Shown here: positions 7,452-47,411 of the stretch, piece by piece
How the letters are laid out: every line of letters begins with the position of its first letter
Numbering within the stretch: position 1 is the stretch's first letter
Source: Microgenomates group bacterium
GTDB taxonomy: Bacteria; Patescibacteriota; Microgenomatia; UBA10105; UBA927
Length of the DNA: 64,000 bases
Direction: 5' to 3'
Assembly (NCBI GenBank): GCA_049287205.1
Contig: JBAQFJ010000001.1
Coordinates: 383,041-447,040, forward strand
The notes under the pieces: model-generated
Databases searched by the model: none
Told to the model about the DNA's origin: nothing
Seen by the model: the letters and a program-made list of their open reading frames with translations, nothing else
Translations under genes and position numbers: made by a program

Positions 7452-8519
7452 GTGACTGACTATTTAAGCAGAAAAATTAAAATTGTTTCCTTTATCGCAA
7501 TTCTGTGCGTGGTGTTTCAACACGCTATTAACTTTACGGGATACATCGACCCTTCTTCGACCTATCTAGGGCAATTAAATTTCAATACCATACTGCAATA
7601 TGTGTTTGGATACGGATTTGCACGAGGAGCAGTTGCGATATTTTTTATGTTGTCCGGTTATTTATTTTTCAGGAATTTTACGCTTAGAAAAACGTTGACG
7701 AAGTTCCGATCCCGTTTCCACAGCCTGTTTATTCCGTATATTTTGTGGGGCGCACTCAGTCTGCTTTTTGTTTTGCTTTTGCAGAGTAAGGGCGGATTTT
7801 TATCCTTATATACAGGTGCTCTGGCAGGTAAATCGTTTATGGAATATCTCCGTATTATTATGAATCACGGTGTTTCATTCCAATTGTGGTTTTTGTGGGA
7901 TTTGATGTTATATACTCTGCTTGCACCTTTGTTTTATATTATTCTACGCTATTCCAACGTGCTGTTTTTGATTCCCGTATATATATTGTGGATGTTGCAG
8001 GTGCCGCTTCCTCCAGCATTCGCATTCCTGTATCGTGGCGGCATTTTCTATTTGCTGGGTGCGTATATTGCCATGTATGGTGTATATATTCCAAAAGAAA
8101 AGGTAAAACCGATTGCTCTCATTTCCATTCTGTTCTGGATGGTCATGCTCGCAATAAAAACGAGTCTTGCATTTGGCGTACTTCCAACCATGTATGTAAA
8201 ACTTTCTCAGATAGACAATATGGCAATGATAATGGGCATTGCAACACTTTGGTTTGGCTATGACAAGATCGCATCGTCAAAACTTATGAATATATTTCTT
8301 GCCGCAACTCCATTCACCTTTTTTTTGTACGCAAGCCATGAACCGCTTTTGGAAGTTATAAAGCAACTCGGGGTGACCCTGACAGGCAGAAGTGATGCTG
8401 CGCTTCTTTTTCTGTACTTTGCATCTATTGTGGTTGTGCTGTTTGTAACAATTGGATGTGGAATTCTCGTGAAAAAATTCACTCCAAAATTCTACAGTCT
8501 TCTGACAGGTGGAAGGTAA
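7452..8519 (+). CDS. acyltransferase family 3 (membrane O-acyltransferase, OatA-like)
   Basis: About 10 TM helices; N-terminal VFQHAIN...FFMLSGYL pattern of the acyltransferase_3 family; GTG start. Confidence 0.65.
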   Translation: MTDYLSRKIKIVSFIAILCVVFQHAINFTGYIDPSSTYLGQLNFNTILQYVFGYGFARGAVAIFFMLSGYLFFRNFTLRKTLTKFRSRFHSLFIPYILWGALSLLFVLLLQSKGGFLSLYTGALAGKSFMEYLRIIMNHGVSFQLWFLWDLMLYTLLAPLFYIILRYSNVLFLIPVYILWMLQVPLPPAFAFLYRGGIFYLLGAYIAMYGVYIPKEKVKPIALISILFWMVMLAIKTSLAFGVLPTMYVKLSQIDNMAMIMGIATLWFGYDKIASSKLMNIFLAATPFTFFLYASHEPLLEVIKQLGVTLTGRSDAALLFLYFASIVVVLFVTIGCGILVKKFTPKFYSLLTGGR

Positions 8520-8581
8520 GGAATATTTTCCGATATTGGCAGATACAGCCAGACATTCTATAATAAAGGTTGTTCGTTTTT

Positions 8582-8654
8582 GCCGAGATGGCCGAGGTAG
8601 TCAAGGCGCTTGTCTGAAAAACAAGTTATCTGGGTGCAATTCCTAGTCTCGGCA
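8582..8654 (+). tRNA. tRNA-Phe (anticodon GAA)
   Basis: GCCGAGATGGCCGAGGTAGTCAAGGCGCTTGTCTGAAAAACAAGTTATCTGGGTGCAATTCCTAGTCTCGGCA, 73 nt; anticodon loop CTGAAAA. Confidence 0.8.
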
Positions 8655-8674
8655 CTGTTACGAATCTTAACAGT

Positions 8675-8746
8675 GCGGCGTTAGTTCAGTGGTAGAATGC
8701 TTCCTTGCCAAGGAAGAGGTCAGCGGTTCAAGTCCGCTACGCCGCT
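8675..8746 (+). tRNA. tRNA-Gly (anticodon GCC)
   Basis: GCGGCGTTAGTTCAGTGGTAGAATGCTTCCTTGCCAAGGAAGAGGTCAGCGGTTCAAGTCCGCTACGCCGCT; anticodon loop TTGCCAA. Confidence 0.85.
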
Positions 8747-8749
8747 CAT

Positions 8750-8950
8750 ATGAAATCAAAAACAAAACGATTATATCGTCCAAATACAGGCCGAGTACTT
8801 TCCGGTCTCCTTGCAGGTGTTGGAGAATATTTTGATACAGATCCTGTTGTGATCCGCTTGATTTTTATTCTTGCAACTGCATTTACCGGATTTGGACCAG
8901 GACTTGTTGCATATATTATCGGAAGTATTGTTGTTCCGAGTGAAGCGTAA
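8750..8950 (+). CDS. PspC-domain membrane protein (66 aa)
   Basis: KRLYRPNTGRVLSGLLAGVGEYFDTDPVVIRLIFIL is the PspC-domain signature. The ATG lies 3 nt after the tRNA-Gly 3' end. The upstream part of the track ORF is the tRNA itself. Confidence 0.6.
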   Translation: MKSKTKRLYRPNTGRVLSGLLAGVGEYFDTDPVVIRLIFILATAFTGFGPGLVAYIIGSIVVPSEA

Positions 8951-8956
8951 AACATT

Positions 8957-9026
8957 GCCGGGTGGTGTAGTGGTAACACGTCTGCCTTTGGAGCAGAAGT
9001 TCCTAGGTCCGATCCCTAGCCCGGCA
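8957..9026 (+). tRNA. tRNA-Gln (anticodon TTG)
   Basis: GCCGGGTGGTGTAGTGGTAACACGTCTGCCTTTGGAGCAGAAG...GGTCCGATCCCTAGCCCGGCA; anticodon loop CTTTGGA. Confidence 0.8.
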
Positions 9027-9031
9027 GCAAA

Positions 9032-11023
9032 TTATCGTCCCCGCGTCCTACTGTAAGAAATACACGCTTTTTGCACTTCTGACAAAAACATAACCAGCTT
9101 TTCATTGTCTTTTGCAAGCGCTTCATTGATATGATTTTGCTTCAAATACTGACTCATTTCTTTTGCAAGAAATCGTATATCGCGTGGCCGCATTGGGCGA
9201 TACGATTCTAGATATATATATGACAAATACGGTAATGTCTTAATGAGTTGATTGATTGTATTTTCATCCAAATGTTCTTGCAACGTTTCAAAATCTACCC
9301 GCCGGAGTATGTTTTCTAAATTTGTTCCTTTCATTCGTATCTTTTCAATGTGTTCACCGATATTTTTAGCCTGTCGTATGTGATAAAAAACATCAGCGAC
9401 TTTATCGTCACCAACAAAATGGTATCTGATTACTTTGTCGATATCGCCTTCTGCTTTTACGTAAAATAACGTTTTTTTGAACTTATTTTTTAGCGCGTCT
9501 ATTGTATCAAGGGTGACGGTATCACGATTTTTGATAAACTCTGCAAATAATTCGTTCTCTGTCATGCCTCCGGGTTCTCGTTTTAATATGGAAAATACAA
9601 TATCCGTTTCATTAGCTTTTACGCCTTTAATACTATTTGGACGTTCTTTGATTGATGAATCGTCAAATAATTTTGTGAGTAATTGATCAAGATTGTTTGG
9701 GTCGATACTTTTGTCGGATTCAGCGATCACCTCTCCAAAACCTTGAAGAAACATCTTGATGCCATTATCTAGATGATATACGCTTCGACTTTTAAATATA
9801 TCATACGATTCTTTAACGGTATCCATCGAGCGAAATTGTTTTTCCACAAGGATTTTTCCTTCACTTAGATACATAAGTGAATTTGATGTATGGAATTTTT
9901 TCCACTCGTCGTGAGTGAAATCCGCAAGTCCAGGCACCAAGTCGGCAATTTTTGTGTCCTGTAAAAAACGGGCAAGTTCACGCGGATTTCGGGACATTGC
10001 GATAAGTAATTCTATTTTTAATAATTTGTATGCTTCATTTGAAAGGTGACCTCCACTAGATGTGAAGTCACGAACTATTTGTCTCAGTTTAAATAAATCT
10101 TCAGTGTACAGTAACTGTGTGAGTTGCTGTAATGTTGTATCCGTGAATGTCTCTGGCGCGTGGATGAGGTGAATACGTAATGCTCGATTTGCCAGTTCAA
10201 CAATTCCAGGCATTTTTTCATGGAAGATGTGTTCTTTTCCAACAAGATTATATCCGGTGTTTTCGTCAAATGTAAACATCAGCCGCCCGTTGTCGTTGAG
10301 TGAAAGCGGTATACGAATATTTTGCCCGTCGATTGTTGGGCCACCCTGTCTTTTTTGGTCTTCCGTTTCTTTTGCAGTTTGAGGAAATGCACTGATATCG
10401 ATATGAAAAAGTCGTTCTTCTGAATTATGGAAACCAATAACGATATTACTTTTTACAGGATTCGTTCCGATCGGTCCAAATCGTATTTTCATTGATAATG
10501 AATCGGATAGTTCAAGTGTTAGATAATGTGCGTAAAATGAAACATTCTTTTCCGTTGAATACTCTTTTATTACTGACTCCGATGTGTTTAAAAGGTTTTT
10601 TTTGAGATATTCATAAAGATGCGGTAATGACCCTTTTTCAGTAAAGCGAAAGCTCATATCAATATCTTGATCGGCTTTCGTTATGTTAGACAGTACTGCA
10701 ATATTTTTAGAATCAAGGGGCAGCATTTTTTGTACAGCAGCAGCATCTTCACGAATAATCCAATTATCTTCCGGATCTCCATTGCCAACTAGGTATCTCG
10801 CGAGACTTCCAGTTAGCGTTATTCCATCACTTTTTTGTGTATCCTCATATCGGCCAAGAAGTGAGAGCGTTGTATCAATACGGGAAAATAATTCTTTGGT
10901 GTATATCGGATTTTTTGCAAGTTCCATGAAAAATGGTATGTAATCCCCTACATATCCCGTCTGTATTGGTTCGTGTTCTTTTCCAAATGTCACACCTGCT
11001 GGTTGTGCCTCGAGTGCTGTCAT
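9032..11023 (-). CDS. large hypothetical protein (663 aa), no recognisable domain
   Basis: Uninterrupted 663-aa ORF. Seven nucleotides downstream of the regulator gene on the same strand, so likely co-transcribed. No Walker or catalytic motif recognised by eye. Confidence 0.6.
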   Translation of the reverse strand: MTALEAQPAGVTFGKEHEPIQTGYVGDYIPFFMELAKNPIYTKELFSRIDTTLSLLGRYEDTQKSDGITLTGSLARYLVGNGDPEDNWIIREDAAAVQKMLPLDSKNIAVLSNITKADQDIDMSFRFTEKGSLPHLYEYLKKNLLNTSESVIKEYSTEKNVSFYAHYLTLELSDSLSMKIRFGPIGTNPVKSNIVIGFHNSEERLFHIDISAFPQTAKETEDQKRQGGPTIDGQNIRIPLSLNDNGRLMFTFDENTGYNLVGKEHIFHEKMPGIVELANRALRIHLIHAPETFTDTTLQQLTQLLYTEDLFKLRQIVRDFTSSGGHLSNEAYKLLKIELLIAMSRNPRELARFLQDTKIADLVPGLADFTHDEWKKFHTSNSLMYLSEGKILVEKQFRSMDTVKESYDIFKSRSVYHLDNGIKMFLQGFGEVIAESDKSIDPNNLDQLLTKLFDDSSIKERPNSIKGVKANETDIVFSILKREPGGMTENELFAEFIKNRDTVTLDTIDALKNKFKKTLFYVKAEGDIDKVIRYHFVGDDKVADVFYHIRQAKNIGEHIEKIRMKGTNLENILRRVDFETLQEHLDENTINQLIKTLPYLSYIYLESYRPMRPRDIRFLAKEMSQYLKQNHINEALAKDNEKLVMFLSEVQKACISYSRTRGR

Positions 11024-11030
11024 ATGTGTA

Positions 11031-12239
11031 TTATAATTGGATATACATATATCCTTTTCCTCGTATCGATTTTATGGACGCAGGTGGAATTTCAAATTCC
11101 GGTAAACGCTTTCTGACTCTGGCAATAATCTGGTCAATCGCCCAATCTGAATAATTGGCATCGGTGTCCGTTGGCCATATCGCCTGTGCGAGATTCTCCC
11201 GTGAGATAATAACACCAGGTTTTGATACAAGGGTTTTGAGAGCACGCATTTCTTTTCTGGAAAAGAATTTTCCGATAGGTACTTGATTTAGATACACCAT
11301 ATTGTTTTCATATGTCAGTGCATGGTCTGTACCGATACTTGCCAACAGGGGTTTTCGTAAGATTGGTACAAGAAGATGATTGTCATCGCTCACAAGATGC
11401 AGTTTCATCAGATGATTGAGGCTATGTTGTTCTTCCGGGCTAAAGGTTTTTCGTCCGGTGAGAATCTTCAAAAGAACACTTCGTTCTGACGGAAGTAATG
11501 ATTGTATGATCATGGTTTTACGGTACAGCATGCCGTCAGTATCTTCATTCCAGTTTTTTTGCACACGCAGTTGTCTGATTGCGTCTTTTATAAACCACCA
11601 TTTTCCGCCGCAGGTTGCTAGCAGATGCTCAATCTGTTTTTGGTTGATATCTACATTCCATTTATCAGCAACGTAATGAATAAAATGTTCCGTGTCTTTT
11701 TTCCCATACAGCGGATAGTAAAAAATACTGTGCAACAGCTGCGGATATTGACGGAATATCATCGCATATTGCGGATGTGTAACATCAATTTCAAAACAAC
11801 ATATGCTGACAATAAACGGGTTATTTTCATACAGTGTTTCATGGAGAGCAGAGAGCAAAAACTTGTTGCTCGCAAGAAGCAGATTGTCTGCGGTGAGTAA
11901 CACTAACACGATCTGTACATTTTTGGTTGCCAAATGCTTCATAACAGCATGAAATGCGTCTTTCTTAGGGATTATTTCTTTCTCAACTAATTTGTTGGTA
12001 ATGTAGTCTGTCAGATCCGTTTTTTCTTCAATATTGAGCAGTTGTGGATCAATTTGTAGAAATACACGATGATACGTGCCTTTTTTATCCTCATCGATGA
12101 ACTGTTCAATTCTTCTAACGCGGTCTGAATAGGGAAAGAAGAGAATAGAAAGATTGTCACCAATTTCTAGCATTGATCGCCAAGCTACTGATGCTTTTTC
12201 GTATTGATTCGTCACAACAGAAGGCGCTAATCCTTGCAT
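11031..12239 (-). CDS. transcriptional regulator: C-terminal OmpR/PhoB-type winged helix fused to an uncharacterised N-terminal domain of about 300 aa (not a receiver domain)
   Basis: The C-terminus RKEMRALKTLVSKPGVIISRENLAQAIWPTDTDANYSDWAIDQIIARVRKRLPEFEIPPASIKSIRGKGYMYI matches the trans_reg_C pattern (L..L......V.SRE.L...W.......R..D..I..LRKKL...I.TVRG.GY). The N-terminal 300 aa lack the REC DD...D...K pattern. Confidence 0.6.
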   Translation of the reverse strand: MQGLAPSVVTNQYEKASVAWRSMLEIGDNLSILFFPYSDRVRRIEQFIDEDKKGTYHRVFLQIDPQLLNIEEKTDLTDYITNKLVEKEIIPKKDAFHAVMKHLATKNVQIVLVLLTADNLLLASNKFLLSALHETLYENNPFIVSICCFEIDVTHPQYAMIFRQYPQLLHSIFYYPLYGKKDTEHFIHYVADKWNVDINQKQIEHLLATCGGKWWFIKDAIRQLRVQKNWNEDTDGMLYRKTMIIQSLLPSERSVLLKILTGRKTFSPEEQHSLNHLMKLHLVSDDNHLLVPILRKPLLASIGTDHALTYENNMVYLNQVPIGKFFSRKEMRALKTLVSKPGVIISRENLAQAIWPTDTDANYSDWAIDQIIARVRKRLPEFEIPPASIKSIRGKGYMYIQL

Positions 12240-12338
12240 ATCAATTGCAGAGTATAGCAGATATCTACTATTTTGACAAATTTCTGTCAGTTATCTCATC
12301 AAGAACTGATATATCACCCTATAGTACGCTCTGAACAC

Positions 12339-12899
12339 ATGCAAACAGTTGTGCGCACCATTGGCAAATTTAGCTTTATTCTACTGAGCATTTTGCTTAT
12401 TACGACTACAAACGTTCGCGCTGCCGCGCGCGATATTACGCCGGAGTCTGTACTTGTTGCTGTGAATCAAACACGTATGGAGAACAGACTACCAGCACTT
12501 TCCATGAATCAAAAGCTTATGATTGCAGCTGAAAATAAGGGGGAAAACATGCAGACCTATGGGTATTGGGCGCATACGAATCCAAAAACAAATGAAACGG
12601 GTTGGATGTTTATTCAACAAACCGGATATCATTATACAAAAGCCGGTGAAAACCTTGCGAAAGACTATACCTCAATTGGAGGCCTTCTAAACGGTTGGAT
12701 GAATTCAACTGCGCACAAAACCGTCATGTTGTCGGATACCTATACAGAAACAGGGATCGGGGTGTTGTATTACATGCAAAACGGTATAGAAAAAGCGCTC
12801 GTTGTGGAATTATTCGCAAATCCTATCGTAAAGAAACAAACGTTTACTACCTCTCTTTCCCTTGCATTTACGAGCCTGCTTCAGACAATTACGCTATAA
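12339..12899 (+). CDS. CAP/SCP/PR-1-like domain secreted protein
   Basis: Signal-peptide-like N-terminus (start at MQTVV), then CAP motifs YGYWAHTNP, GENLA and GWMNSTAHKTVMLSDTYTETGIGV. Confidence 0.65.
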   Translation: MQTVVRTIGKFSFILLSILLITTTNVRAAARDITPESVLVAVNQTRMENRLPALSMNQKLMIAAENKGENMQTYGYWAHTNPKTNETGWMFIQQTGYHYTKAGENLAKDYTSIGGLLNGWMNSTAHKTVMLSDTYTETGIGVLYYMQNGIEKALVVELFANPIVKKQTFTTSLSLAFTSLLQTITL

Positions 12900-17258: not shown

Positions 17259-19015
17259 AAAATGAAACTAATACCTGCAAAACCAATCGGAATAAGCAGC
17301 CAATACATCGGTGTTACCGTATAGGTAAAACTGGTAATTTCGCCGTTTACCGATACATCGATTGTGCCTTTTCCCGTTGCAACGTAGCTAGTTATTGGAA
17401 TATGAATCGGTACAGTCAAAATGCCGAATGGCGGCACCGCTTTTTCGGTGTTTGTCACGTGCAAAACATAGGGATTGGCGTCGACTGCGATATTGACTTC
17501 CGGCGCAGTAACATTTCCTAAGTTTTCTATCTGTATGGATCCGTCTAAACTTTTACCCGCATGCACACTGGATGGCAAAAGAAATGTTGTTCTAAAACTC
17601 GCATTCGCGATAGTTTTTACCACAGGAGCAAAAGTGACGGAAACATTTTTTCGGGGAATTGTTCCTTCTTTGTATGATCCGGCGGGATACGGTGTTTCGC
17701 TGGAAATGCCATGAATGACGAATGCGATGTGGTTAAAATCAAACACATCAAAGTAGTTAATACCCCCCGTTGTATGCGCCCACGTCGGATCAATTTGTAC
17801 CCACTGTTTCCGCGTGCCGTCGTAATATTCTGGCCAAGCATGTAATACGTCAGATCCTGTTAACAATGGACGAAGCCGGGTATCTGTTGTGTATGCATAG
17901 CCTATGACTTCCCGCGCAGGAATTCCTGCGGCACGGGCAAGAGCAATAAAAAGGTCGGTAAATTCGGTACAAACACTTGTATTAGGATCTGTAAGCGCTG
18001 TAACAGCACCTTTTCTGATTGTTTCATCCGTGTCGTTTTTTTGATAATTCAGCGTTTCAACAACATAGTTGTAGATGGCACGTGGCGTGGTATATTTTTT
18101 CGCTAAATCCTGTATGGTACTGTTTTGCGTTTCCCAATACCGGTCTTGTTTCAGATACGCTTGTACGTCTGACACTGTCTCACTGTATGTAGTTTTTGGT
18201 TTGTTATATGTTTGTATGTGAAGTTTTGCGACAACATCAACGCGTTGTTTTGCGGTTAATTCAAATGACGCAATCCAGTTGCCATCCGCATCCTTTTTCA
18301 TTTCTTTTGGTTTGGGAGTTACGGAATCAATGCTGATTGTTTGGTATGCGTTGTCAGCGGGTATGGTTAGTGTCAGTAGTTTTGCTGATAATGTGTCGTT
18401 TTCCAGCGGATAGGTAAGATTGGCAACATAAGATTGAAATTCTCCATATGCAGCGTTAATGCCGCCATAGATCAGTTGTTCTTTTGTCCAACGATTTCCT
18501 GAAGCAGGGAGCGGTGTCATGTATGCGTTTTGAGGAAAAGATGCGGGTGTTTGGAGCGATACAGTATATTCACCCAAACTTTCGTCATTTTCTACTCCAG
18601 GAATATGAATTTCCCAGATATTGCCGAGTTGGCGAGCTATATCAGCATTTTCATATCGGATATTAAACACAAGTTTTTTATCGATACCGACAATTTTTTC
18701 GTTAAATTGCACCGTGATGTTTGTTGTGCCGTCTTGCTGTGTAATTTTTGGTGTTATAACGCCCTTTTGATCATAAGCAATGACGTTTTTTATATTTTCG
18801 CTGTCAATGGAAATGGTATATTGCTTTGGATACAGATTCGATTGTTTGTTCGTAAGCGTTATGTTCTGCGTGACAATCGTTGTTCCCGTTGGAGAAACAG
18901 CATATTGTGTATCATAATCCGCTTGGAAATCTGCAGCCTGTAGGATGGTTGACGGGATAAAATAAAGAGATAGCGCAATAAAAAAATACAGAAGACGCAG
19001 TGCTATTTTTTTCAT
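17228..19015 (-). CDS. transglutaminase-like domain protein with signal peptide and C-terminal TM anchor
   Basis: Core TEFTDLFIALARAAGIPAREVIGY ... HAWPEYY ... DPTW (Cys-His-Asp transglutaminase core). Confidence 0.65.
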   Translation of the reverse strand: MKKIALRLLYFFIALSLYFIPSTILQAADFQADYDTQYAVSPTGTTIVTQNITLTNKQSNLYPKQYTISIDSENIKNVIAYDQKGVITPKITQQDGTTNITVQFNEKIVGIDKKLVFNIRYENADIARQLGNIWEIHIPGVENDESLGEYTVSLQTPASFPQNAYMTPLPASGNRWTKEQLIYGGINAAYGEFQSYVANLTYPLENDTLSAKLLTLTIPADNAYQTISIDSVTPKPKEMKKDADGNWIASFELTAKQRVDVVAKLHIQTYNKPKTTYSETVSDVQAYLKQDRYWETQNSTIQDLAKKYTTPRAIYNYVVETLNYQKNDTDETIRKGAVTALTDPNTSVCTEFTDLFIALARAAGIPAREVIGYAYTTDTRLRPLLTGSDVLHAWPEYYDGTRKQWVQIDPTWAHTTGGINYFDVFDFNHIAFVIHGISSETPYPAGSYKEGTIPRKNVSVTFAPVVKTIANASFRTTFLLPSSVHAGKSLDGSIQIENLGNVTAPEVNIAVDANPYVLHVTNTEKAVPPFGILTVPIHIPITSYVATGKGTIDVSVNGEITSFTYTVTPMYWLLIPIGFAGISFILCIWWILRKK

Positions 19016-21966
19016 ACTAATGTTTTTAAGAACGCACCTGTTGCTGACAGCGGATTTTTTGCAATTGCGGTCGGTGACCCTTCGGCAATAATTTTTCCTC
19101 CTCCGTCTCCCCCTTCAGGTCCCATGTCAATTATCCAGTCCGCATTCTTTATTATATCCAAATTGTGTTCAATAACGATAACGGTATTTCCATAGGCGGT
19201 TAACCGGTCGAGCACATGCAAGAGTTTCTCAAGATCGGAAAAATGGAGTCCTGTGGTTGGCTCATCAAGCACGTACACTGTTTTTCCTGTAGCTCTGCGT
19301 GAAAGTTCAGTTGCGAGTTTTACCCGTTGCGCCTCTCCTCCTGAGAGTGTTGTTGCGGACTGACCGAGTTTCATATACCCGAGTCCCACGTCTTGCAGTG
19401 TTTTTAGTTTCTCCGCAACACCCGAATGACTTTTAAAGAAGGTGACTGCTTCGTCAATACTCATTGCTAACACGTCGGCAATATTTTTTCCATGATATAA
19501 CACCTCTAACGTTTCTTGGTTATACCGCAATCCATGACAGACTTCACATGTGACAAAAACATCAGAGAGAAATTGCATCTCAATTCGTTTTTGGCCTTCT
19601 CCTTCACACCCTTCGCATCTGCCGCCTTTTACATTAAAAGAAAATCTTCCGCCGGTATACCCTTTTGCTTTTGCCTCAGGCATCATTGCGAATAATTCAC
19701 GGATATAGGTAAATAGACCCGTGTATGTTGCGGGATTGCTTCTGGGTGTTCTTCCGATTGGTGACTGGTCAATGAGAATTGTTTTATCAATTTTTTCCAA
19801 ACCGTCAATGCGTTCATAGCTTCCCGGTTTATCTTTTACCATCGGACTAAAATGGCGTTGCATCGCCTTAAACAATGTGTCAACAATAAGTGAGGATTTG
19901 CCGCTTCCGGATAATCCCGTGACACAAACCAATTTACCGAGCGGTATGGAAACGGTGACGTTTTTCAGATTATTATGTGTCGCATGTACCAGTGTCAGTT
20001 TTGCATGTTCATCTTCTGTCTTATCGGGAATTTGGAGATGGCTAAATCCCGTGAATGATCGTGTAATTATTTTCTTATTTGATAAATATTCGGCGGTTAA
20101 AGAATTCGTTTTCAGGAGTTCATCATGTGTTCCGGCTGCCACAATTTGCCCGCCTAAATTTCCTGCACCCGGTCCAAAATCGACAATGTGATCAGCATTC
20201 TCCATCATTTCCCGATCATGTTCCACCACAATCACTGTGTTTCCAAGATCTCGGAGGTGTTTTAAGGTATCAATGAGTCGTTTATTGTCCCGTTGATGGA
20301 GTCCGATGGATGGCTCATCAAGCACATATAATACACCGGAGAGTCCGGAACCGATTTGAGAAGCAAGTCTGATACGTTGTGCTTCTCCACCTGATAAGGA
20401 TATTGCACCACGAGCGAGGGTGAGATAGGAAAGTCCCACGTCAAGCAAAAACTTTAATCGTGTTTGAATTTCCTTTAAAATCGGTTCTGCGATTGTCTGT
20501 TCCCTGTCGCTTAAGATGCCCTTTTCATTTGCCTGCAGTCTTCGTGCCCAATGTTCAGATTCGGTAATGGAGAGTTGTGTGGCATCATGAATCGAAAATC
20601 CGTCAACAGTCACCGTCAGCACATCTTTTTTTAAGCGTGCGCCGTGGCAGGTTTCACAAATTTCTTCACGCATAAATTTTTCGATTTCTTCCCGTACCCA
20701 AGCGCTTGTTGTCTCCTTATGTCGTTTTTTCATTTCAGCGATAAATCCGTGGAATGATTCGTGGATGGTCGTAACTTCGCCGAATCTGTTTGTGCCTTCG
20801 ACGGTATATACCTCATCTCCTGTTCCATAGAGAAGAATATCTTTTTGTTTTTTTGTCAATTGTTTGATTGGTTTTTTTATATCAATGCCTGTGGCTGTAG
20901 CAACGGTTGTGATAACTCTGGAAAACCATGTGTCGTGTTCAAATGTGTTGGCAAACGGAAGCACTCCGCCTTCTGATATGGAAAGTTCCTCGCTGAACAT
21001 CATGGTTGGATCGACAGTCAGAATATAGCCAATCCCTCCGCAGGTTGGACATGCACCGTGCGGTGTATTGAAGGAAAACATGCGCGGCTCCAACTCCGGA
21101 ATTGATGTTGCATCCACAGGACAAGAAAAATGTTCTGAGTAGCTGGTTGTATGTATTTTTTTGGGCTTTTCAGGAAATGTAAATGCAGCGTCCCCGACAG
21201 CACCGACAACAACAAGACCCCCTGATAAAACAAGCGCCTGTTCAACACTGTCAGTAAGCCGGGAAATAATTGTTTTTTTGCCTTCCTCATGACGAAGCGT
21301 TGGTTTATCAACGGTTACTTTATCAATAACGACATCAATTGAGTGTTTATTTGTTTTAATAAGAAACACATCCTCATCAATATTGTAGAATACGCCGTCG
21401 ACACGAACCGTTTTATATCCTTTTGCCTTCAGATTTTGAAATAATCCCGAATATTCACCTTTTCTGTCGCGTATTACCGGAGACAATATCATCAAGAATG
21501 CGCTTTTTTTTGTGGCACTGGTCAACTGTTCCTTTGCTTCCTCCAGAATTTTTAAAACGATCTGTGAAGAAGTCATTTTGGAAATTTCTCTGCCGCAGAT
21601 CAAACAATGCGGGTGACCAATGCGGGCATAGAGAAGACGCATATAATCATAAATTTCTGTAACTGTGCCGACCGTAGACCTTGGATTATGTGACGTGGAT
21701 TTTTGGTCAATGGAAATTGCGGGAGAAAGCCCTATAATGTTGTCGACATCGGGTTTATCCATAATTCCCAAAAACTGCCGTGCATAGGAAGAAAGTGATT
21801 CAACATATCTTCTCTGGCCTTCTGCGTATATCGTATCAAACGCAAGAGATGATTTTCCTGATCCTGATACTCCCGTAAATACCACGAGTTTATTTTTCGG
21901 TAACGTACAAGTGATGTTTTTGAGATTATGCTGTCGGGCTCCTGTAATAATAATTTTATCGTCCAT
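19012..21966 (-). CDS. uvrA: excinuclease ABC subunit A (UvrA)
   Basis: 984 aa; two ABC ATPase modules ([29 protein letters not shown] signatures) and zinc-finger CxxC pairs. Confidence 0.95.
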
Positions 21967-22035
21967 AGATGAATTGGTACACCAACAATAAATACCGCGA
22001 AATGTTCCGTGGCAAGGGTCTATTATAGCGCATTT

Positions 22036-24042
22036 TTATGACTTTATCTTCCTGATAAAGTCACGAATTTGCATAGCTTCTTCAAATTTAAGATTTTTTG
22101 CCGATTGTTGCATTCTGCTTCTCATTTTTTTAACGAGTGCATCTTTATCCAATGGGGTCATGGATTCTAATTTACTGTCGGTGTAGAGATCCATATCCGT
22201 GTATGCTTCTTCTTTCCGCCTTGCTTCATCCGTCCACTCGGCAATGAGTCCCATTCTGATTGGTTTTTGGATTGTAGTCGGCGTTATATGATATTTTTTG
22301 TTATATGTTTCCTGTACACTTCGTCTCCGTTCAACTTCATTTACTGCCGCAGTAATGGATTTTGTCATAACGTCGGCATACAAAATAACGGTACCTTTGA
22401 TGTGTCTTGCGGCTCTTCCCATTGTTTGGATAAGACTGACTCTGCTTCTTAAAAATCCTTCTTTGTCAGCATCCAGTATTGCAACAAGTGAGACTTCCGG
22501 AAGATCAAGTCCTTCCCGAAGCAGGTTTACACCAATAATGACATCAAACTTTCCTTTTCGTAAATTTGCAAGAATTGCGGTGCGTTCCATTGTGAGCACG
22601 TCAGAATGAATAAATTCAACTAATATGTTTTTTTGTTTCAGATACGTAGTTAAATCTTCCGCCATTTGTTTGGTGAGCGTTGTCACAATGACGCGTTCAT
22701 GCAATTTGACTCGTTTTTGAATTTCCATTTCAAGATCCGCAATCTGTCCCTTAGCAGGACGAATAGAAATAATTGGGTCAAGCAACCCTGTCGGACGCAC
22801 AAGCTGTTCTGCGACTGTGTCAGCCCGTGAGAGCTCCCAATCATCGGGTGTTGCTGATACATAGACTGTTTGCGGACGGCGCCTCAAAAATTCGTCAAAC
22901 GTGAGCGGCCGATTATCCATTGCTGATGGAAGTCTGAATCCATAGTCTACCAATGTTTGTTTCCTCGATCTGTCTCCGTTGTACATACCTCTGATTTGTG
23001 GAACTGTCATATGAGATTCGTCGATGAACAGAAGCCAAGGTGTGTCTTTGGTCGCCTCTTCAAAATAATCGAGCAAGGTAAACGGTGCATCTCCCGGCTT
23101 TCGTCCGTCAAAGTACCGTGAATAGTTTTCAATGCCATTGGTGTAGCCTACTTCAGCAATCATCTCGAGGTCATGCGTAACGCGTTCATATATGCGTTGC
23201 GCTTCGATAAGCTTACCCTGACTTTTAAATAAGGCAACTTGTTGTTCCATGTCTTTTTGAATGACTTTAAAGACTTCTTTATATGTTGTTGGGTCCGTCA
23301 TGTAGTGTTTTGCTGGATATATGAGCGCTGCAGGTTGTGTATCAATAACATCACCGGTTGTCGGGTTGATGTGCGCAATTGTTTTTAAAACATTTTTATC
23401 TAGTTCCAAACGAATGAGCTGATCCTCATATGCAGGGAATACGTCAATGGTTTCCCCTCGTACACGAAATAATCCGCGGTTTACTTCCCAGGCATTCCTC
23501 GCATATTGGAGCTGCACTAATCGGGTGATGATGTCTTCCCGCCTGATTTTCATGCCTGTTTTGAGTTCTAGGGCAAAATGTCCGTATTCGCGCGGAGAAC
23601 CGATGTTATAAATACAGGAAACGGATGCAACGACGATTGCGTCAGGTCGCGTTAAGATATTTGCCGTTGCGGCAAGCCTCAGTTTATCGATTTCTTCATT
23701 TATTTGTGTTTCTTTTTCTATATACGTATCTGATGCGGGCAAATAGGACTCCGGCTGATAATAATCGTAATAGGAGACAAAGTAGGAAACGGCATTTTCC
23801 GGAAAGAAATCCCGAAACTCCTGATATAACTGGGCAGCCAGTGTTTTATTATGCGAAATTATCAGTGTCGGTCGTTGCACTCGCTCAATGACATTGGCCA
23901 TGGTGAACGTTTTTCCGCTTCCTGTGACCCCGACAAGCACAAGATCCTTTTTGTTTTCAATAATTTTTTTGACAAGTGCGTCGATTGCTTCCGGTTGATC
24001 ACCAGTTGGAGTCATTGAGCTTGATAATGTAAATCGTTTCAT
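22036..24042 (-). CDS. uvrB: excinuclease ABC subunit B (UvrB)
   Basis: GVTGSGKTFTMANVI helicase motif I, DESH box, C-terminal UVR motif. Confidence 0.95.
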   Translation of the reverse strand: MKRFTLSSSMTPTGDQPEAIDALVKKIIENKKDLVLVGVTGSGKTFTMANVIERVQRPTLIISHNKTLAAQLYQEFRDFFPENAVSYFVSYYDYYQPESYLPASDTYIEKETQINEEIDKLRLAATANILTRPDAIVVASVSCIYNIGSPREYGHFALELKTGMKIRREDIITRLVQLQYARNAWEVNRGLFRVRGETIDVFPAYEDQLIRLELDKNVLKTIAHINPTTGDVIDTQPAALIYPAKHYMTDPTTYKEVFKVIQKDMEQQVALFKSQGKLIEAQRIYERVTHDLEMIAEVGYTNGIENYSRYFDGRKPGDAPFTLLDYFEEATKDTPWLLFIDESHMTVPQIRGMYNGDRSRKQTLVDYGFRLPSAMDNRPLTFDEFLRRRPQTVYVSATPDDWELSRADTVAEQLVRPTGLLDPIISIRPAKGQIADLEMEIQKRVKLHERVIVTTLTKQMAEDLTTYLKQKNILVEFIHSDVLTMERTAILANLRKGKFDVIIGVNLLREGLDLPEVSLVAILDADKEGFLRSRVSLIQTMGRAARHIKGTVILYADVMTKSITAAVNEVERRRSVQETYNKKYHITPTTIQKPIRMGLIAEWTDEARRKEEAYTDMDLYTDSKLESMTPLDKDALVKKMRSRMQQSAKNLKFEEAMQIRDFIRKIKS

Positions 24043-24163
24043 ATAATCCGTACGGGTTATTTCAAATTTGATATGGTTTGTTTCTGTTTACTAGTATTGA
24101 CTGTTCGTGTTTATTATGGAATACTACAAATAATAGTAACACACATTCGGTTTTTATACGACT

Positions 24164-24793
24164 ATGCCATCAACACTTTATCCGAAAGAAAGACAGCTCT
24201 TAGAGTTTATCACGCAGTTCATGCAACGGTACGGGTACGCACCTACCCTCAAAGAAATGGGGGCAGCTGTGGGAATCGGCTCCGTTGCAACAGTGCATGA
24301 ACATATTAGCCGTCTTCGGGATAAAGGATTTGTTAAAAAATTGGATGGTACCGCAAGAGGTCTTGAGATTATCAAAACACAATATCGCGCAGGGTCTACA
24401 GAAGCTGCTGTTGAACTCCCTATCCTAGGCTACATTGCCGCAGGACAGCCGCTTGAGCCGTTCACCGATCCTAGTCAATATATGGCCGTTGCGCCCAACA
24501 TGATCAGTCAGGAAAAGGCAAATTACGTGTTGCAAGTAAAAGGAACATCTATGATTGAAGATGGAATCTTAGATGGAGATTATGTCGTTGTACAGCACCA
24601 ACAGGATGCAAAAAATGGTGATATCGTTGTTGCCTTGTTGCCGAACGGATTTGCAACACTCAAACGCATTTATTTTGAGAAAGATCGCATTAAGCTGATG
24701 CCTGCAAATTCCGCCATGTCCCCTATTTTTACAACCCACGTAAAGATTCAGGGACGGGTCGTGGGAGTCATCCGTCGGTATTCTGTTTCCTAA
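24164..24793 (+). CDS. lexA: LexA repressor (S24 peptidase)
   Basis: N-terminal wHTH (LKEMGAAVGIGSVATVHEHISRL), Ala-Gly cleavage site, S24 catalytic region (GTSM...GDIVVAL). Divergent from uvrB. Confidence 0.9.
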   Translation: MPSTLYPKERQLLEFITQFMQRYGYAPTLKEMGAAVGIGSVATVHEHISRLRDKGFVKKLDGTARGLEIIKTQYRAGSTEAAVELPILGYIAAGQPLEPFTDPSQYMAVAPNMISQEKANYVLQVKGTSMIEDGILDGDYVVVQHQQDAKNGDIVVALLPNGFATLKRIYFEKDRIKLMPANSAMSPIFTTHVKIQGRVVGVIRRYSVS

Positions 24794-24811
24794 ATCGGGT
24801 ATAATAGCTTC

Positions 24812-25495
24812 ATGGGTACATTATTTTTGGTTTCCACGCCAATCGGCAACATTGATGACGTAACAATCCGCGCACTAAAAACGCTGTTTTCTGTTGAAGT
24901 GATTGCATGCGAGGACACAAGACAAACAGGACAACTTCTTTCTATTTTAAAAGAGCGTTTCCCATCTTTTGTTGGAGCGAGTACACCAAAACTGATTGCG
25001 TATCACGATAAAAACGAAGAAAAACTTGTTCCTGAAATCATCACAATGATTGAATCCGGCACAAGGGTAGCACTTGTATCTGATGCGGGTACTCCGCTTA
25101 TTTCTGATCCGGGCTACCGACTCGTACAAATTGCCATAAAGCGAGGCATTACTGTTACACCTGTACCGGGAGCTTCTGCAATCTTGCCGGCACTCCAACT
25201 TTCCGGGTTTCCCGTAAATCACTGGACATTTGTCGGGTATTTACCGGAGAAACAATCGCACCGCATGAAATTGCTTGAAGAACTGAAAACTGCAGATAAC
25301 ACGGTCATATCCTATTGCGCACCACATAAACTTGCATTAACGCTTGTTGATTTGGAAGCTGTTTTTGGTTCGTCAAAACAAATTGCAGTTGTAAGAGAAC
25401 TTACAAAAGTGCATGAAGATGTATGGCGTGGAACAATAGCAGATGCTCATACCGCCTGTGCCGATCCCAAAGGTGAAATTGTTCTTGTTTTTTAA
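24812..25495 (+). CDS. rsmI: 16S rRNA (cytidine1402-2'-O)-methyltransferase RsmI
   Basis: LFLVSTPIGNIDDVTIRAL ... ACEDTR tetrapyrrole-methylase-fold signature of RsmI. Confidence 0.85.
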   Translation: MGTLFLVSTPIGNIDDVTIRALKTLFSVEVIACEDTRQTGQLLSILKERFPSFVGASTPKLIAYHDKNEEKLVPEIITMIESGTRVALVSDAGTPLISDPGYRLVQIAIKRGITVTPVPGASAILPALQLSGFPVNHWTFVGYLPEKQSHRMKLLEELKTADNTVISYCAPHKLALTLVDLEAVFGSSKQIAVVRELTKVHEDVWRGTIADAHTACADPKGEIVLVF

Positions 25496-25553
25496 TATCT
25501 TGTTTCTTCCAGAGGTTCTTGTTATATTTTCCTTCAGTAATAGCACATGCGTC

Positions 25554-25575
25554 TATACATTGTCTGCAATGTATA
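25554..25575. promoter_or_regulatory. perfect 9-bp inverted repeat TATACATTG-tctg-CAATGTATA in a 200-bp intergenic region
   Basis: Seen directly. AT-rich, so more operator-like than terminator-like; about 125 bp upstream of the ORF at 25701. Confidence 0.4.
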
Positions 25576-25700
25576 CAAGAAGCAGTGTGATACTTTTTTG
25601 CACGTTACCAAGTACAGTTTTGTGTGGACAGGATTTTGGACGTCAAACAGAAATTTGATGTATAAAAGACTGTCCATACATTACAGATTAAGGGAGAAAA

Positions 25701-26006
25701 ATGAAGACAAAGAAGTTTATGCTACGAATTGATAATGCTGTGTATGTTGTTGCTCTTGATACGGAAAAAGGTAAAATCGTGTTATCTGGATCCTGCGTGC
25801 AAGGAAGAAATGTTTTTACATACACCATTGTTGGTGATCATCTGCAATTAAAAATGGGGTATCATGCGTTTTTGAATATGACTGCCGAAGAGGTAGCCTG
25901 CATGCTCGGTGCGCCGCTTGCAACGAAACCTACATTCCTAGAAACCATGTTTTTTGCCGAAGGTTTCATTCTCTTCTCCTTCTTGATCCTGTACCAGAAC
26001 GTGTAA
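25701..26006 (+). CDS. hypothetical protein (101 aa), hydrophobic C-terminal tail
   Basis: Good SD (TTAAGGGAGAAAA ATG). Its own intergenic leader upstream and a nested-hairpin terminator immediately downstream. Confidence 0.45.
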   Translation: MKTKKFMLRIDNAVYVVALDTEKGKIVLSGSCVQGRNVFTYTIVGDHLQLKMGYHAFLNMTAEEVACMLGAPLATKPTFLETMFFAEGFILFSFLILYQNV

Positions 26007-26056
26007 AACACTCCCGACCAATTTGTTGGTCTTTCTTAAATGATAGGGAGTGTTTT
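26005..26056. terminator. nested-hairpin element / bidirectional terminator (member 2 of 3)
   Basis: Outer stem AAAACACTCCC/GGGAGTGTTTT encloses GACCAA-tttg-TTGGTC; T-runs on both sides. Between convergent genes. Confidence 0.55.
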
Positions 26057-26073
26057 ATTTGATAATGCTGTAT

Positions 26074-26841
26074 TTAGTTATGAAATCCGTGGGTAAATTC
26101 CGGCAGATGGATAATTGAAAATACATGATCAGGAGCAGGATGCGGATATTTCCCAAAGTATTCTGATTCCCGTGCAAGGACAACAAGCGGATGCCTCACG
26201 GTATCGGGTAAGCGGAGAATAGTATTCAATATTTTTTGTACCGCGATATCTGTTCCTCCTGTTGTGTATACATCATCAATCGTAAGAATACCTTTTCCGT
26301 AACGATTGTCCCGTAGGAGAATTGCTAAATCAGTCGCCGAAATTCCAAGAAATTTATCCGCATCACCTGATGTAACATTCCGGTACGCAATAGGTGCAAT
26401 AGCTGACTCTATCGCTACTTCATTTTCCTCCCTACCGCCCGGGAGAATAATGTAATTAATATGTTTGCCTAATGCGTGTGAAACAATGTCGACTGTTTCT
26501 TTAATTGAAGGAAGGGATTTTGAAGAATCCGGCGTCACTATTGTTGTCACTTCTTGTCCTTTACGCACCATTTCAAGAATCAAGTCTGCCCGTTCCACTG
26601 CAGATGCATGGGAAAGACCAACAGGAACACCTTTATGATCCGGATGTGTATCAAGCCACGCAATATAGATTGGATTCTCTTCGCCTCCAACATTCCTCAG
26701 TTCCAGAGGGAATTTTTGGCCCGCAAGATCTATTTCTAAAAATTTTCCGTCAGCTGTGATATGGCTCTCATCGTATTCTCGAATATACGGAATAACCTCA
26801 AAAGTTTTTAAATACCTTTGTGTTTCTTGCGTTGCGCTCAT
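26074..26841 (-). CDS. phosphoribosyltransferase-domain protein
   Basis: Type-I PRTase PRPP-binding motif ILTIDDVYTTGGT; extra N-terminal domain. Confidence 0.5.
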   Translation of the reverse strand: MSATQETQRYLKTFEVIPYIREYDESHITADGKFLEIDLAGQKFPLELRNVGGEENPIYIAWLDTHPDHKGVPVGLSHASAVERADLILEMVRKGQEVTTIVTPDSSKSLPSIKETVDIVSHALGKHINYIILPGGREENEVAIESAIAPIAYRNVTSGDADKFLGISATDLAILLRDNRYGKGILTIDDVYTTGGTDIAVQKILNTILRLPDTVRHPLVVLARESEYFGKYPHPAPDHVFSIIHLPEFTHGFHN

Positions 26842-26885
26842 ACAACGCTCATTGTAGGATAAAATGCCAAATAATCAAGAAGGAA

Positions 26886-27878
26886 TTAAAAACGTTCAAT
26901 GGTGGCTTTTGCATCTGTGTATATTCGCGACCATGCATCAATGTCTTTTGTATGAAGTAGTCCCTTTTGTGCACCCACATACCCAATAACAGATGCTGCA
27001 TTCATCGTTCCCCATTGGAGCGCTTGTTCGAATGATAGGTCTTTTAATATTGCAGCAACAAATGCCGAGTTAAACGCATCACCCGCTCCTGTTTTTTCCA
27101 CCACTGTTACCGGTATCACGGAACTTCGATAGTATTCCGAGCCGTTGTATGCAAATACGCCTTGTTTTCCGTCTGTGATGACAATGTGTTGCGGCCCCAA
27201 ATGTGCGAGCGTCTGTAATAATTCTTTTTCTTTTGTTTCACTATCGCTCAGTCCGGAAAAAATTTCGGCTTCCTGACGGTTGACGAATAATGTATTAGTT
27301 CTGGATAAAATAAAATGAATATCTTCTATAGGTGCACGTACCTGCAAACTTCCCGGATTAAAAAATAACGTCACTCCGGGATTTTCTTTTAACTGATTGA
27401 TAAGATCCCGATAGAAGGACATAAAGTTTTCACCCATGGAGGTAAGGTATACATAACAATCAGTACAGGGCTCTTTGGTAAATGTATATGTTTTTGGTGC
27501 GTGATAGGTGAGAATAGTTCGTTCCCCCTGATACACAATGACTGTTGAGTAATTCGAGGCAATTCCTGCTTTCATGGTCACATGTTGAGTATTTATCTGC
27601 TCTAGTTCCAAATGTTCATATATCATTTTACTGACACTGTCCGTGCCTATTGTTGTATAAATTGACGCAGGAATATCAAGACGCCTCAAGCCTATAGAAA
27701 CGTTTGCCGCGTTGCCGCCTGTTAAGTACGTGACGCTTTCAACAGGTATTTTGTCACCATACGAAAAGCAAAGGAATTTTTCGTTCTGTTTCATTTGACA
27801 GGATGCTTCTCCTGCTTTTGGCGTTAAAAATACATCTATGGTGACGTCGCCGATAACAACAACTGATTTATGATTCAT
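26886..27878 (-). CDS. PfkB-family carbohydrate kinase (ribokinase-like)
   Basis: VVVIGDVTIDVFL N-terminal motif, TGGNAANVS, C-terminal GAGDAFNSAFVAAIL. Start moved to MNHKSVVV; the longer track ORF would overlap fba by about 110 nt. Confidence 0.7.
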   Translation of the reverse strand: MNHKSVVVIGDVTIDVFLTPKAGEASCQMKQNEKFLCFSYGDKIPVESVTYLTGGNAANVSIGLRRLDIPASIYTTIGTDSVSKMIYEHLELEQINTQHVTMKAGIASNYSTVIVYQGERTILTYHAPKTYTFTKEPCTDCYVYLTSMGENFMSFYRDLINQLKENPGVTLFFNPGSLQVRAPIEDIHFILSRTNTLFVNRQEAEIFSGLSDSETKEKELLQTLAHLGPQHIVITDGKQGVFAYNGSEYYRSSVIPVTVVEKTGAGDAFNSAFVAAILKDLSFEQALQWGTMNAASVIGYVGAQKGLLHTKDIDAWSRIYTDAKATIERF

Positions 27879-47409: not shown

Positions 47410-47411
47410 AA

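Follow-up and report, generated by a model that had tools for sequence, protein, structure and literature searches.

A putatively autoregulated two-gene operon of Microgenomates couples an OmpR-type one-component regulator to a hypervariable protein

Two adjoining reverse-strand genes, which we call REG and BIG, were analyzed in a 64,000-nucleotide stretch of Microgenomates group bacterium contig JBAQFJ010000001.1 (assembly GCA_049287205.1), referred to here as the window. The explanation that we consider probable overall is that they form an autoregulated two-gene operon specific to Microgenomates/Patescibacteria. REG would be a one-component transcription factor composed of a P-loop-less AAA+/ORC-Cdc6-type module, an internal winged helix, and a C-terminal OmpR/PhoB-type winged helix-turn-helix (wHTH), and it would bind a 32-nt composite element, GCTTGAYR-N7-TGACA-N6-TGTCA, in its own promoter and repress the operon. 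BIG, translated from the same mRNA, would be a cytoplasmic multidomain protein and a very divergent nucleotidyltransferase (NTase) of the Pol-beta superfamily, and it would undergo replacement or diversification as a cassette bounded by the conserved 3' end of REG and the downstream flank. No description of the REG-BIG family was found in the literature searched. The elements of the pair are as follows.

11031..12239, reverse strand: REG, open reading frame (ORF) call, 402 amino acids (aa)
11340..12239, reverse strand: REG aa 1-300, predicted AAA+-like alpha/beta core, lid, and internal winged helix (AlphaFold2 [AF2] model)
11046..11261, reverse strand: REG aa 327-398, OmpR/PhoB wHTH, Pfam Trans_reg_C (PF00486)
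9032..11023, reverse strand: BIG, ORF call, 663 aa, family-less and hypervariable
10244..10906, reverse strand: BIG aa ~40-260, alpha/beta "head" with the NTase-like signature G72-S73-x-A-R…D120-x-D122…D209, then R225
9926..10198, reverse strand: BIG aa 276-366, helical "neck" with E276-x3-R280-x2-R283 and EL.I…P…FLQD…PGL
9377..9610, reverse strand: BIG aa ~472-549, predicted winged helix (AF2 and Foldseek), followed by a helical tail
12251..12279, reverse strand: putative sigma-70-type promoter of REG-BIG, with -35 TTGTCA (12279..12274), a 17-nt spacer, and an extended -10
12274-12289, no strand assigned: palindrome TGACA-N6-TGTCA (TGACAAATTTCTGTCA), the only exact copy in the window
12273..12304, reverse strand: candidate composite operator TCTTGATGAGATAAC-TGACAGAAATTTGTCA-A, 32 nt, scoring 42 bits of a maximum of 48 with a position weight matrix (PWM)

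The original prediction, made from the letters of the window, had described the two ORFs, a 7-nt gap between them, the adjoining tRNAs, and the palindrome, all of which are present at these positions. It had further proposed a regulator with a degenerate NTPase-like core in place of a receiver domain, a partner without a recognizable domain, an autoregulatory operator, a tRNA integration hotspot, and an accessory regulatory or defense-type module.

RESULTS

REG combines an OmpR-type wHTH with a P-loop-less AAA+-like module

Pfam Trans_reg_C matches REG aa 327-398 with an E value of 2.2e-13 and 50.5 bits, against a gathering cut-off of 26.2, and PF00486 is present in 26/26 REG homologues. The recognition helix of this domain, YSDWAIDQIIARVRKRL, is almost invariant in the family. 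There is no Response_reg match in Pfam, and the NCBIfam response-regulator models, whose best partial matches include RpaB, PhoB, and CreB, cover just the last ~90 residues, far below their cut-offs. Because these models match the tail alone, we conclude that REG has no receiver domain. The proposal of an atypical OmpR-type regulator lacking a receiver is supported.

The AF2 model of REG, built from an alignment of 26 full-length homologues of ~405 aa (84-28% identity), has a predicted local distance difference test score (pLDDT) of 89 and a predicted template-modeling score (pTM) of 0.72. Foldseek against PDB returned 248 chains at E ≤ 1e-3, and among the 50 best listed almost all are AAA+/STAND proteins. 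The top match is 2qen (PAB2304 of Pyrococcus, a "Walker-type ATPase"; E 1.7e-8, TMq 0.51), and others are archaeal/eukaryotic ORC/Cdc6, DnaA, RuvB, FtsH, a clamp loader, and plant NLR NB-ARC, with alignments spanning about 340-460 columns. The model therefore describes REG as an ASCE core with lid and winged helix, followed by the OmpR wHTH, and the suspected degenerate NTPase-like core finds its counterpart in a predicted P-loop-less AAA+/ORC-Cdc6-like fold.

The Walker A P-loop GxxxxGK[ST] between beta1 and alpha1 is absent throughout the REG family. In the model, strand 30-34 (SILFF) runs through a PYSDR turn directly into helix 40-50, and these 5 residues leave no room for a P-loop; a 5-residue turn occupies this position in 26/26 homologues, with the family consensus FFPKTDRxRR and no glycine-rich loop. 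The Walker-B-like strand QIVLVLLTAD (108-114) ends in A-[DE] in most members, the position not being invariant, and CGGKWWF falls in the modeled lid helix. Since the P-loop is lost, REG is probably not an ATPase. Residues F34, D39, R43, E150, Y178, G212, W215, K218, and R240 are invariant in the family, and the family-invariant charged residues D39, R43, E150, and D152 around the former nucleotide site suggest a repurposed ligand or partner pocket in the model. The N-terminal module may serve oligomerization and/or signal sensing.

REG shares its NTPase fold, lid, winged helix, and DNA-binding output with STAND/AAA+ regulators (MalT/LAL, AfsR/SARP-NB-ARC) and with PAB2304. It differs from them in its small size, about 400 aa, and in the deletion of Walker A in the whole family, which makes nucleotide-driven switching unlikely. 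In SARP/AfsR, moreover, the wHTH is N-terminal and accompanied by a BTAD, whereas that of REG is C-terminal; no BTAD, NB-ARC, or TPR match to REG was found in Pfam. Like PhoB/OmpR response regulators, REG carries a C-terminal Trans_reg_C winged helix, but it has an AAA+-like N terminus instead of a receiver with a phospho-acceptor. No HisKA or HATPase_c family occurs among the scanned or called REG neighbors, and no histidine kinase was detected beside REG.

A genome scan of GTDB with the motif YS[DN]WAIDQ recovered 66 loci (designated by L numbers, as are all loci below), and in many cases a single locus contains two paralogues. The loci come from Gottesman-, Levy-, Roizman-, Woese-, Blackburn-, and Shapirobacteria and from further Patescibacteria. 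REG therefore belongs to a large one-component regulator family of new architecture, centered on the candidate phyla radiation (CPR). Many of the metagenome-assembled genome (MAG) records with Patescibacteria-type genes (e.g., L010-L013, L015, and L016) are titled "uncultured Gammaproteobacteria bacterium," and "Candidatus Bathyarchaeia archaeon" is the title of one set of contigs that carries REG; such titles look like placeholder or mis-binned taxonomic labels.

A candidate composite operator overlaps the REG promoter

The right arm of the palindrome is the -35 hexamer TTGTCA of the REG promoter, whose extended -10 reads TGcTATACT (hexamer 12256..12251; scored 10/12 with TG before the -10). 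Within the window alone the palindrome is of modest significance, with 0.12 exact copies of TGACA-N6-TGTCA expected in 64 kb and at least one match in 12/100 shuffles; the comparative data make it, by our estimate, highly significant. In the close relatives L001, L002, and L075 the block CTTGATGAGATAACTGACAGAAATTTGTCAAAATAGTA is almost unchanged. The exact palindrome also occurs about 45-55 nt upstream of REG in L005, L007, L010, L011, L015, L016, L017, L018, L019, and L022, ten loci with entirely different neighborhoods and REGs only 25-37% identical. Overall, it lies 30-55 nt upstream of REG in at least 12 distinct loci across a range of REG identity of 25-84%, and the motif as such stands upstream of REG in at least 13 distinct loci. 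In nearly every distant locus GCTTGAYR precedes it (N7, about 8 nt upstream) and a TATAAT-like box follows 17 nt downstream of the right half-site, and the -35/17 nt/-10 geometry is repeated in 11 other loci. There are 20 exact sites in ~0.9 Mb of loci, compared with ~1.7 expected, nearly all of them upstream of REG.

A 32-nt PWM was built from 14 sites and used to scan ~1 Mb. All matches above 18 bits lie upstream of REG, of a REG operon leader, or of a separately transcribed BIG. They include sites on which the PWM had not been trained, before a def-REG operon (L003), before REG (L080), and before BIG (L013), and weaker variants lie upstream of the more distant REGs of L006, L023, and L024. 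L013 is the one locus in which BIG, lying convergent to REG, requires a promoter to itself; there BIG is preceded by a degenerate composite copy in which one half-site has 2 mismatches. Additional full 32-nt operators were observed at L007:323-338, upstream of an S-adenosylhomocysteine hydrolase-like gene that precedes REG; at L017:5837-5852, as a tandem second copy 89 bp upstream; and at L022:4406-4421, intergenic and 1.5 kb upstream.

Because the motif travels with REG across genomes and overlaps the core promoter, its last half-site being the -35 of REG's own promoter, REG would control its own operon and BIG with it. Autoregulation through this operator is strongly supported by the comparison, and the palindrome proposed as an autoregulatory site is borne out by its conservation upstream of REG homologues in unrelated contexts. 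We favor autorepression, since the operator covers the -35 of a promoter that is near consensus and looks strong without a regulator; PhoB-like class II activation would be the alternative.

The composite element contains three TGWYR half-sites with a period of 11-12 bp. The Pho box, CTGTCAT-N4-CTGTCAT, replaces the -35 and has the core TGTCA. The REG half-site has this same core, and as in PhoB/OmpR targets the half-sites stand at an 11-bp period in the -35 position, which fits the OmpR/PhoB-type, almost invariant recognition helix. Weighing against a canonical OmpR-type site, the family usually binds direct repeats, whereas the main half-sites here are formally an inverted rather than a tandem repeat; TGACA and TGTCA differ at the central base only, so that the orientation of the half-sites is ambiguous.

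REG and BIG are coupled in many lineages, but not obligatorily

The REG stop codon ends at base 11031 and the BIG ATG begins at 11023, leaving a gap of 7 nt, across which BIG would be translationally coupled to REG. REG is directly followed by BIG, with gaps of +7 to -17 nt, in the window, L001, L075, L002/L009, L005, L007/L014, L010, L016, L017, and L018. The proposed co-transcription accords with this tight or overlapping coupling in at least 10 lineages. A hairpin, GGATATATGTATATCC, just upstream of the BIG start was considered and rejected: its complementarity is not kept in relatives, and it is therefore a by-product of the GYMYI codons.

Other arrangements occur. The two genes are convergent in L013, as noted above, and in L019 and L023 REG is followed by short homologues of the BIG N terminus (323 and 406 aa; hhalign probability, 88% and 85%). 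A BIG-like protein precedes a REG paralogue in L038 and L039, and in L021 one of the REG paralogues and a BIG-like gene are transcribed divergently; these distant partners share the BIG neck region. Against a fixed two-gene unit, REG orthologues with the same operator but no BIG were found in L003, L011, L015, and L022, from which it follows that REG does not strictly need BIG. In L003 and L011, REG is followed by S-adenosylmethionine (SAM) methyltransferases. The association of REG with BIG is real, then, but not obligatory, and REG resembles a regulatory chassis whose cargo can be exchanged.

Across Patescibacteria, REG paralogues are also tightly coupled (overlap to +100 nt) to large Pfam-less proteins of 490-670 aa (L020, L027, L029, L030, L035, L046-L049, L055, L062, L063, L067, and L070), which form several mutually unrelated clusters; another REG-linked cluster consists of HAD-family hydrolases (L064, L069, L072, and L074). 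In an all-against-all hhalign comparison of the REG-linked partners, most clusters were not detectably related to BIG or to one another.

The pair is linked and patchily distributed, in keeping with the co-occurrence and patchiness that the original prediction had named for checking, and it has other neighborhoods in other Gottesmanbacteria. At L005:3934-7251 and L007:1604-6445 it lies beside or inside the normally universal rplK-rplA/rplJ-rplL cluster, and the L005 copy separates rplA from rplJ. Downstream of the L007 pair come a second, divergent REG paralogue and an APH-family kinase, and an IS200-type Y1 transposase gene lies close by. The module has clearly moved during the evolution of the Gottesmanbacteria.

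BIG is a candidate divergent nucleotidyltransferase

BIG is 100% identical to the NCBI entry "hypothetical protein WAV51_01950," and the nearest named relative is a Candidatus Gottesmanbacteria MAG. As had been predicted, it has no recognizable domain: BIG matches no family in Pfam, NCBIfam, PADLOC, or PHROG. A HMMER search of 1.84 billion representative proteins yielded just 68 BIG clusters, all of 600-820 aa and with a conserved core at about positions 155-435; a second homology search, started from 8 aligned sequences, recovered nothing beyond the 5 proteins already obtained.

In an alignment of 60 members with a mean column identity of 17%, D120, R225, and R280 are conserved in 60/60 and D122, R283, and G421 in 59/60. 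Conservation is also high at P347 and at G72 (G or S), both 57/60, and at E276 (54/60), S73 (S or G; 50/60), and D209 (48/60). The head has the topology alpha-beta-alpha-(insert)-beta-alpha-beta-beta in the AF2 model; taken with the pattern L-x-G-S-x-A-R…D-x-D…D, in which [GS][SG]…DxD would be the metal-binding signature, it resembles a Pol-beta-type NTase. The best Foldseek matches of BIG, all of them weak, are the class II NTases 3wfo/3wfq (A-adding enzyme; E 2-3e-3; 3wfo, 1.9e-3) and 3aql (the poly(A) polymerase of E. coli), together with 3c18, a protein described as "NTase-like." The predicted winged helix (H472-482, H489-498, H505-524, E528-537, and E540-549 in the model) matches TFIIE-alpha, TFE, and PadR (prob 0.97-1.0, E 0.03-0.9), and single members of the family match Pfam TFIIE_alpha and TrmB. 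The tail has a weak resemblance to the RNA polymerase alpha-CTD (E 0.39 by PDB hmmsearch).

Class II NTases (CCA-adding enzymes, PolyA_pol) share with BIG the motif order G[GS]-x-x-R…DxD…R…E-x3-R-x2-R, followed by a helical body. Many bacterial CCA enzymes carry an HD domain after the core, and NTases are commonly paired with HD domains. One distant BIG member likewise has an HD domain after its core: P0091 (808 aa) combines the core (aa 176-435) with a MESH1/SpoT-type HD hydrolase (aa 470-588; E 9e-11 to PDB 3nr1), and its C-terminal region contains another G…DIDF-like motif. This fusion is a possible Rosetta-stone link of BIG to nucleotide/alarmone metabolism. Taken together, these features make a divergent NTase with an added winged helix the most likely identity of BIG, a reading on which we are evenly balanced; such an enzyme, resembling CCA-adding enzymes or poly(A) polymerases, would act on a nucleotide or on an RNA or DNA end.

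Several observations weigh against this identity. Structure prediction, the route suggested for both proteins, gave a confident AAA+-like fold for REG but a weak model (pLDDT 61.6, pTM 0.38) and weak matches for BIG. The Foldseek matches, made with this model of pLDDT 62, are above E 1e-3, with TM 0.08-0.19 for 3wfo. Searches of Pfam, NCBIfam, PADLOC, and PHROG and PDB hmmsearch give no link to NTases: the Pfam matches of the 60 members include no NTase family even at E ≤ 10 and nothing recurrent, and in PDB hmmsearch the 60-sequence profile found no credible match, all hits lying at E > 0.1. With hhalign, BIG showed no significant similarity to a CCA/PAP profile of 4 class II sequences, comprising three PDB segments and the E. 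coli Cca sequence (best E 0.032, probability 1.6%). Its two best local matches (E 0.25 and 0.032), although nonsignificant, are colinear and in this respect point toward an NTase: they place the class II EDxLRxLR motif at E276/R280/R283 and align the next helix, BIG 346-366. The GS and DxD motifs are ~46 residues apart, compared with the canonical 9-13, owing to a 35-residue insertion, and the putative third carboxylate, D209, is His in 9/60 members. Further differences from class II NTases are the extra beta-hairpins of the head, the added winged helix, a different tail, and the hypervariability of BIG, CCA/PAP enzymes being conserved housekeeping proteins. A bona fide cca gene for comparison was not found in the window or the loci, and the one GGAARN…DLD protein, encoded downstream of a REG paralogue (L067), has no PDB or Pfam match.

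BIG is hypervariable within a conserved neighborhood

Between the window and L001, ten neighboring proteins are 69-92% identical and REG is 79% identical, whereas BIG is 37.5% identical; in L075 the corresponding values are 76-88%, 84%, and 36%. DNA identity is 70-88% on the flanks, drops to 35-55% exactly between 11049 and 9066, and is again 86% at tRNA-Gln. Pairwise identities among six "orthologues" are 35-56% for BIG and 61-84% for REG. The two genes also group differently. REG of the window groups with that of L075 (84%, compared with 78% between L001 and L075), whereas BIG of L001 groups with that of L075 (65%) and the window allele is the outlier (36-40%), so that the BIG tree is incongruent with the REG tree.

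Every BIG allele nevertheless retains an intact ORF of 640-830 aa, and the invariant residues are shared by all. Such a pattern is in line with cassette-like allele replacement or strong diversifying selection, whereas neither a pseudogene nor uniform relaxation of the gene would account for it. It would be typical of proteins in molecular conflict, and the cassette diversification suggests a fast-evolving partner, be it a phage, a mobile element, or a host factor. A 409-442-aa protein encoded at 5960/6059-7288 (forward strand) has faint HAD/APP1-like similarity (E 0.03-0.09) and is yet 77-92% identical in relatives; the conservation of this Pfam-less protein indicates that Pfam-less genes here are not generally fast-evolving.

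The genes that flank the pair are as follows.

12339..12899, forward strand: CAP-domain gene (cysteine-rich secretory protein family; Pfam CAP E 2.7e-12), with an N-terminal hydrophobic segment
8582-9028, forward strand: tRNA-Phe, tRNA-Gly, and tRNA-Gln (tRNA scan), convergent toward BIG

The likely start of the CAP gene is ATG 12339, in frame with TTG 12273, which corrects the intergenic region to 12240-12338 (99 bp). The CAP promoter must overlap the operator, and co-regulation of the CAP gene is thus possible. The divergent CAP/REG layout is kept only in L001, L002, and L075, and we treat the gene as context and a possible, not a proven, member of the module. Within the tRNA cluster, a small PspC-domain-like membrane protein gene (8750-8950, forward strand) starts directly after tRNA-Gly (8675-8747) and ends 5 nt before tRNA-Gln (8956-9028). 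PspC genes (50 and 66 aa) were called at the same spot in L001 and L075; in L002 none was called and the gap from tRNA-Gly to tRNA-Gln is just 6 nt.

DISCUSSION

Alternative explanations

The position of the pair beside the tRNAs had been read as an integration hotspot. A genomic island or mobile element integrated at tRNA-Gln or the tRNA cluster would agree with the 3 nt between the BIG stop codon and the 3' end of tRNA-Gln and with a small dip in guanine-plus-cytosine (GC) content over 9-11 kb (0.375-0.377, compared with ~0.41). The neighborhood is, however, colinear in the close relatives: UvrA, a transglutaminase-like protein, UvrC, a holin-like protein, CofD, SecG, SBP_bac_5, CAP, REG, and BIG are followed by tRNA-Gln, (PspC), tRNA-Gly, tRNA-Phe, an acyltransferase, and tRNA-Val. 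The order tRNA-Phe/Gly/Gln-BIG-REG-CAP is the same in L001, L002, and L075, with 70-90% DNA identity on the flanks. No integrase, transposase, or phage gene occurs among the neighbors, direct-repeat detection over 8500-12600 found no tRNA-derived duplicate or att site and only short families at chance level, and in 8 other lineages the pair is not beside any tRNA. The hotspot is not upheld, and an island of this kind is effectively refuted.

The operon could instead be a toxin-antitoxin or abortive-infection pair of the type IV, AbiE-like kind, with REG as autorepressing antitoxin, BIG as an NTase toxin that acts on tRNA or other RNA like AbiEii/MenT, and the hypervariability of BIG as the mark of an arms race with phages. 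AbiE consists of the wHTH antitoxin AbiEi and the NTase toxin AbiEii/DUF1814 and is autoregulated via an inverted repeat in its promoter. REG-BIG is likewise bicistronic, with the regulator gene first, tight or overlapping coupling to a putative NTase with a GS…DxD signature, and a palindromic operator overlapping the -35, through which it would be autoregulated. The short BIG N-terminal homologues of L019 and L023 (323 and 406 aa) come close to AbiEii in size, and the module is patchily distributed and has been relocated (e.g., to rplA/rplJ in L005). Yet neither component is homologous to its AbiE counterpart. PADLOC-DB, which includes AbiE models, gave 0 families at E ≤ 1 for either protein, so that the suggested check of the gene pair came back empty, and Pfam shows no AbiEii/DUF1814 or AbiEi domain. 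Sizes and architectures differ, REG being a 402-aa protein with an AAA+-like module, unlike AbiEi, and BIG exceeding AbiEii in size 2-3 times. In L003, L011, and L015 REG has the same operator but no BIG, the pair is stably syntenic among close relatives, and a conserved REG is joined to a nonconserved BIG, although the two members of a toxin-antitoxin pair normally co-evolve. We regard an AbiE-like pair as distinctly unlikely.

Alternatively, the pair could be a housekeeping module, in which REG is an ordinary lineage-specific transcription factor and BIG an RNA or nucleotide enzyme (for poly(A)/CCA-like tailing or alarmone-related) that evolves fast because its surface is weakly constrained in reduced CPR genomes. 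The kept synteny with UvrC, CofD, SecG, the SBP gene, and the tRNAs speaks for it, as do the absence of mobility genes and repeats nearby, of viral copies, and of matches to defense families, the fusion of one BIG member to a MESH1-type HD hydrolase, and the coupling of REG orthologues to SAM methyltransferases (L003 and L011) and the HAD family. It is difficult to reconcile with the extreme drop in BIG identity, to 36%, beside neighbors at 76-92% that include the Pfam-less 409/442-aa HAD-like protein (77-92%), with identity breaks that are sharp at the ORF ends, with the incongruent trees, and with the rarity of BIG (68 clusters in 1.84e9 proteins), which is missing from many related genomes. 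A housekeeping role is, in our judgment, unlikely, and we continue to prefer a lineage-specific, autoregulated REG-BIG operon with a cassette-diversified, putative NTase.

Of the accessory regulatory or defense-type module that had been proposed, the regulatory half is retained and membership in a known defense system is not; the framing as an accessory island at the tRNAs does not hold for this lineage. Besides the empty PADLOC search, neither REG nor BIG was found on IMG/VR viral contigs, BIG matches no PHROG family, and there is no similarity to BFVD; two of the BIG alignments proved too divergent for seeding collection scans. Because BIG is hypervariable, a conflict-type role is still conceivable, but any conflict or defense role of REG-BIG is speculative. 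That REG-BIG is the founding example of a CPR-specific conflict module, for anti-phage defense or host interaction, is an idea that we hold as possible but doubtful. REG would then hold the cassette-swapped NTase BIG tightly repressed until a trigger is sensed, BIG would modify RNA or tRNA ends or make a nucleotide signal, and the same chassis would act through alternative effectors, namely the other Pfam-less proteins coupled to REG paralogues.

Other features of the window

The cumulative GC skew peaks at about 19-25 kb (window ~19000-28000) and declines steadily over the rest of the window, as expected for a switch in strand bias at a replication terminus (or at an origin, depending on orientation). 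A membrane H+-pyrophosphatase gene at 60925-62916 on the reverse strand (H_PPase, E 5e-219), whose product happens to have 663 aa as well but is unrelated to BIG, occupies the single GC-rich stretch of the window (0.48-0.50, compared with ~0.41). A low-GC block at 42998-51839 (0.33-0.38) contains several Pfam-less ORFs of 288-551 aa (42998-44653, 45281-46399, 47643-48509, and 50796-51839) beside an ArsP-type permease and may be a more plausible accessory region than REG-BIG.

Implications for regulation in Patescibacteria

Regulation in CPR/Patescibacteria is almost unexplored, because few transcription factors are recognizable in these genomes. The present analysis yields a regulator family, in which a P-loop-less AAA+-like module is joined to an OmpR wHTH, that occurs widely in Microgenomates and is often represented by several paralogues in one genome, together with a DNA motif for REG obtained by phylogenetic footprinting and a target operon. 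A one-component wHTH regulator and, probably for BIG, an NTase are known kinds of protein; what is new is the OmpR-family architecture of REG with a computationally defined operator and target. The contrast between 36% identity in BIG and ~85% in its flanks is among the sharpest in a syntenic frame and typical of arms-race proteins. Should BIG be a housekeeping protein, it would still represent a new family of RNA or nucleotide enzymes; if it is an NTase used in conflict, REG-BIG would introduce a new class of effector, and a regulatory logic that is likewise new, for ultra-small symbiotic bacteria.

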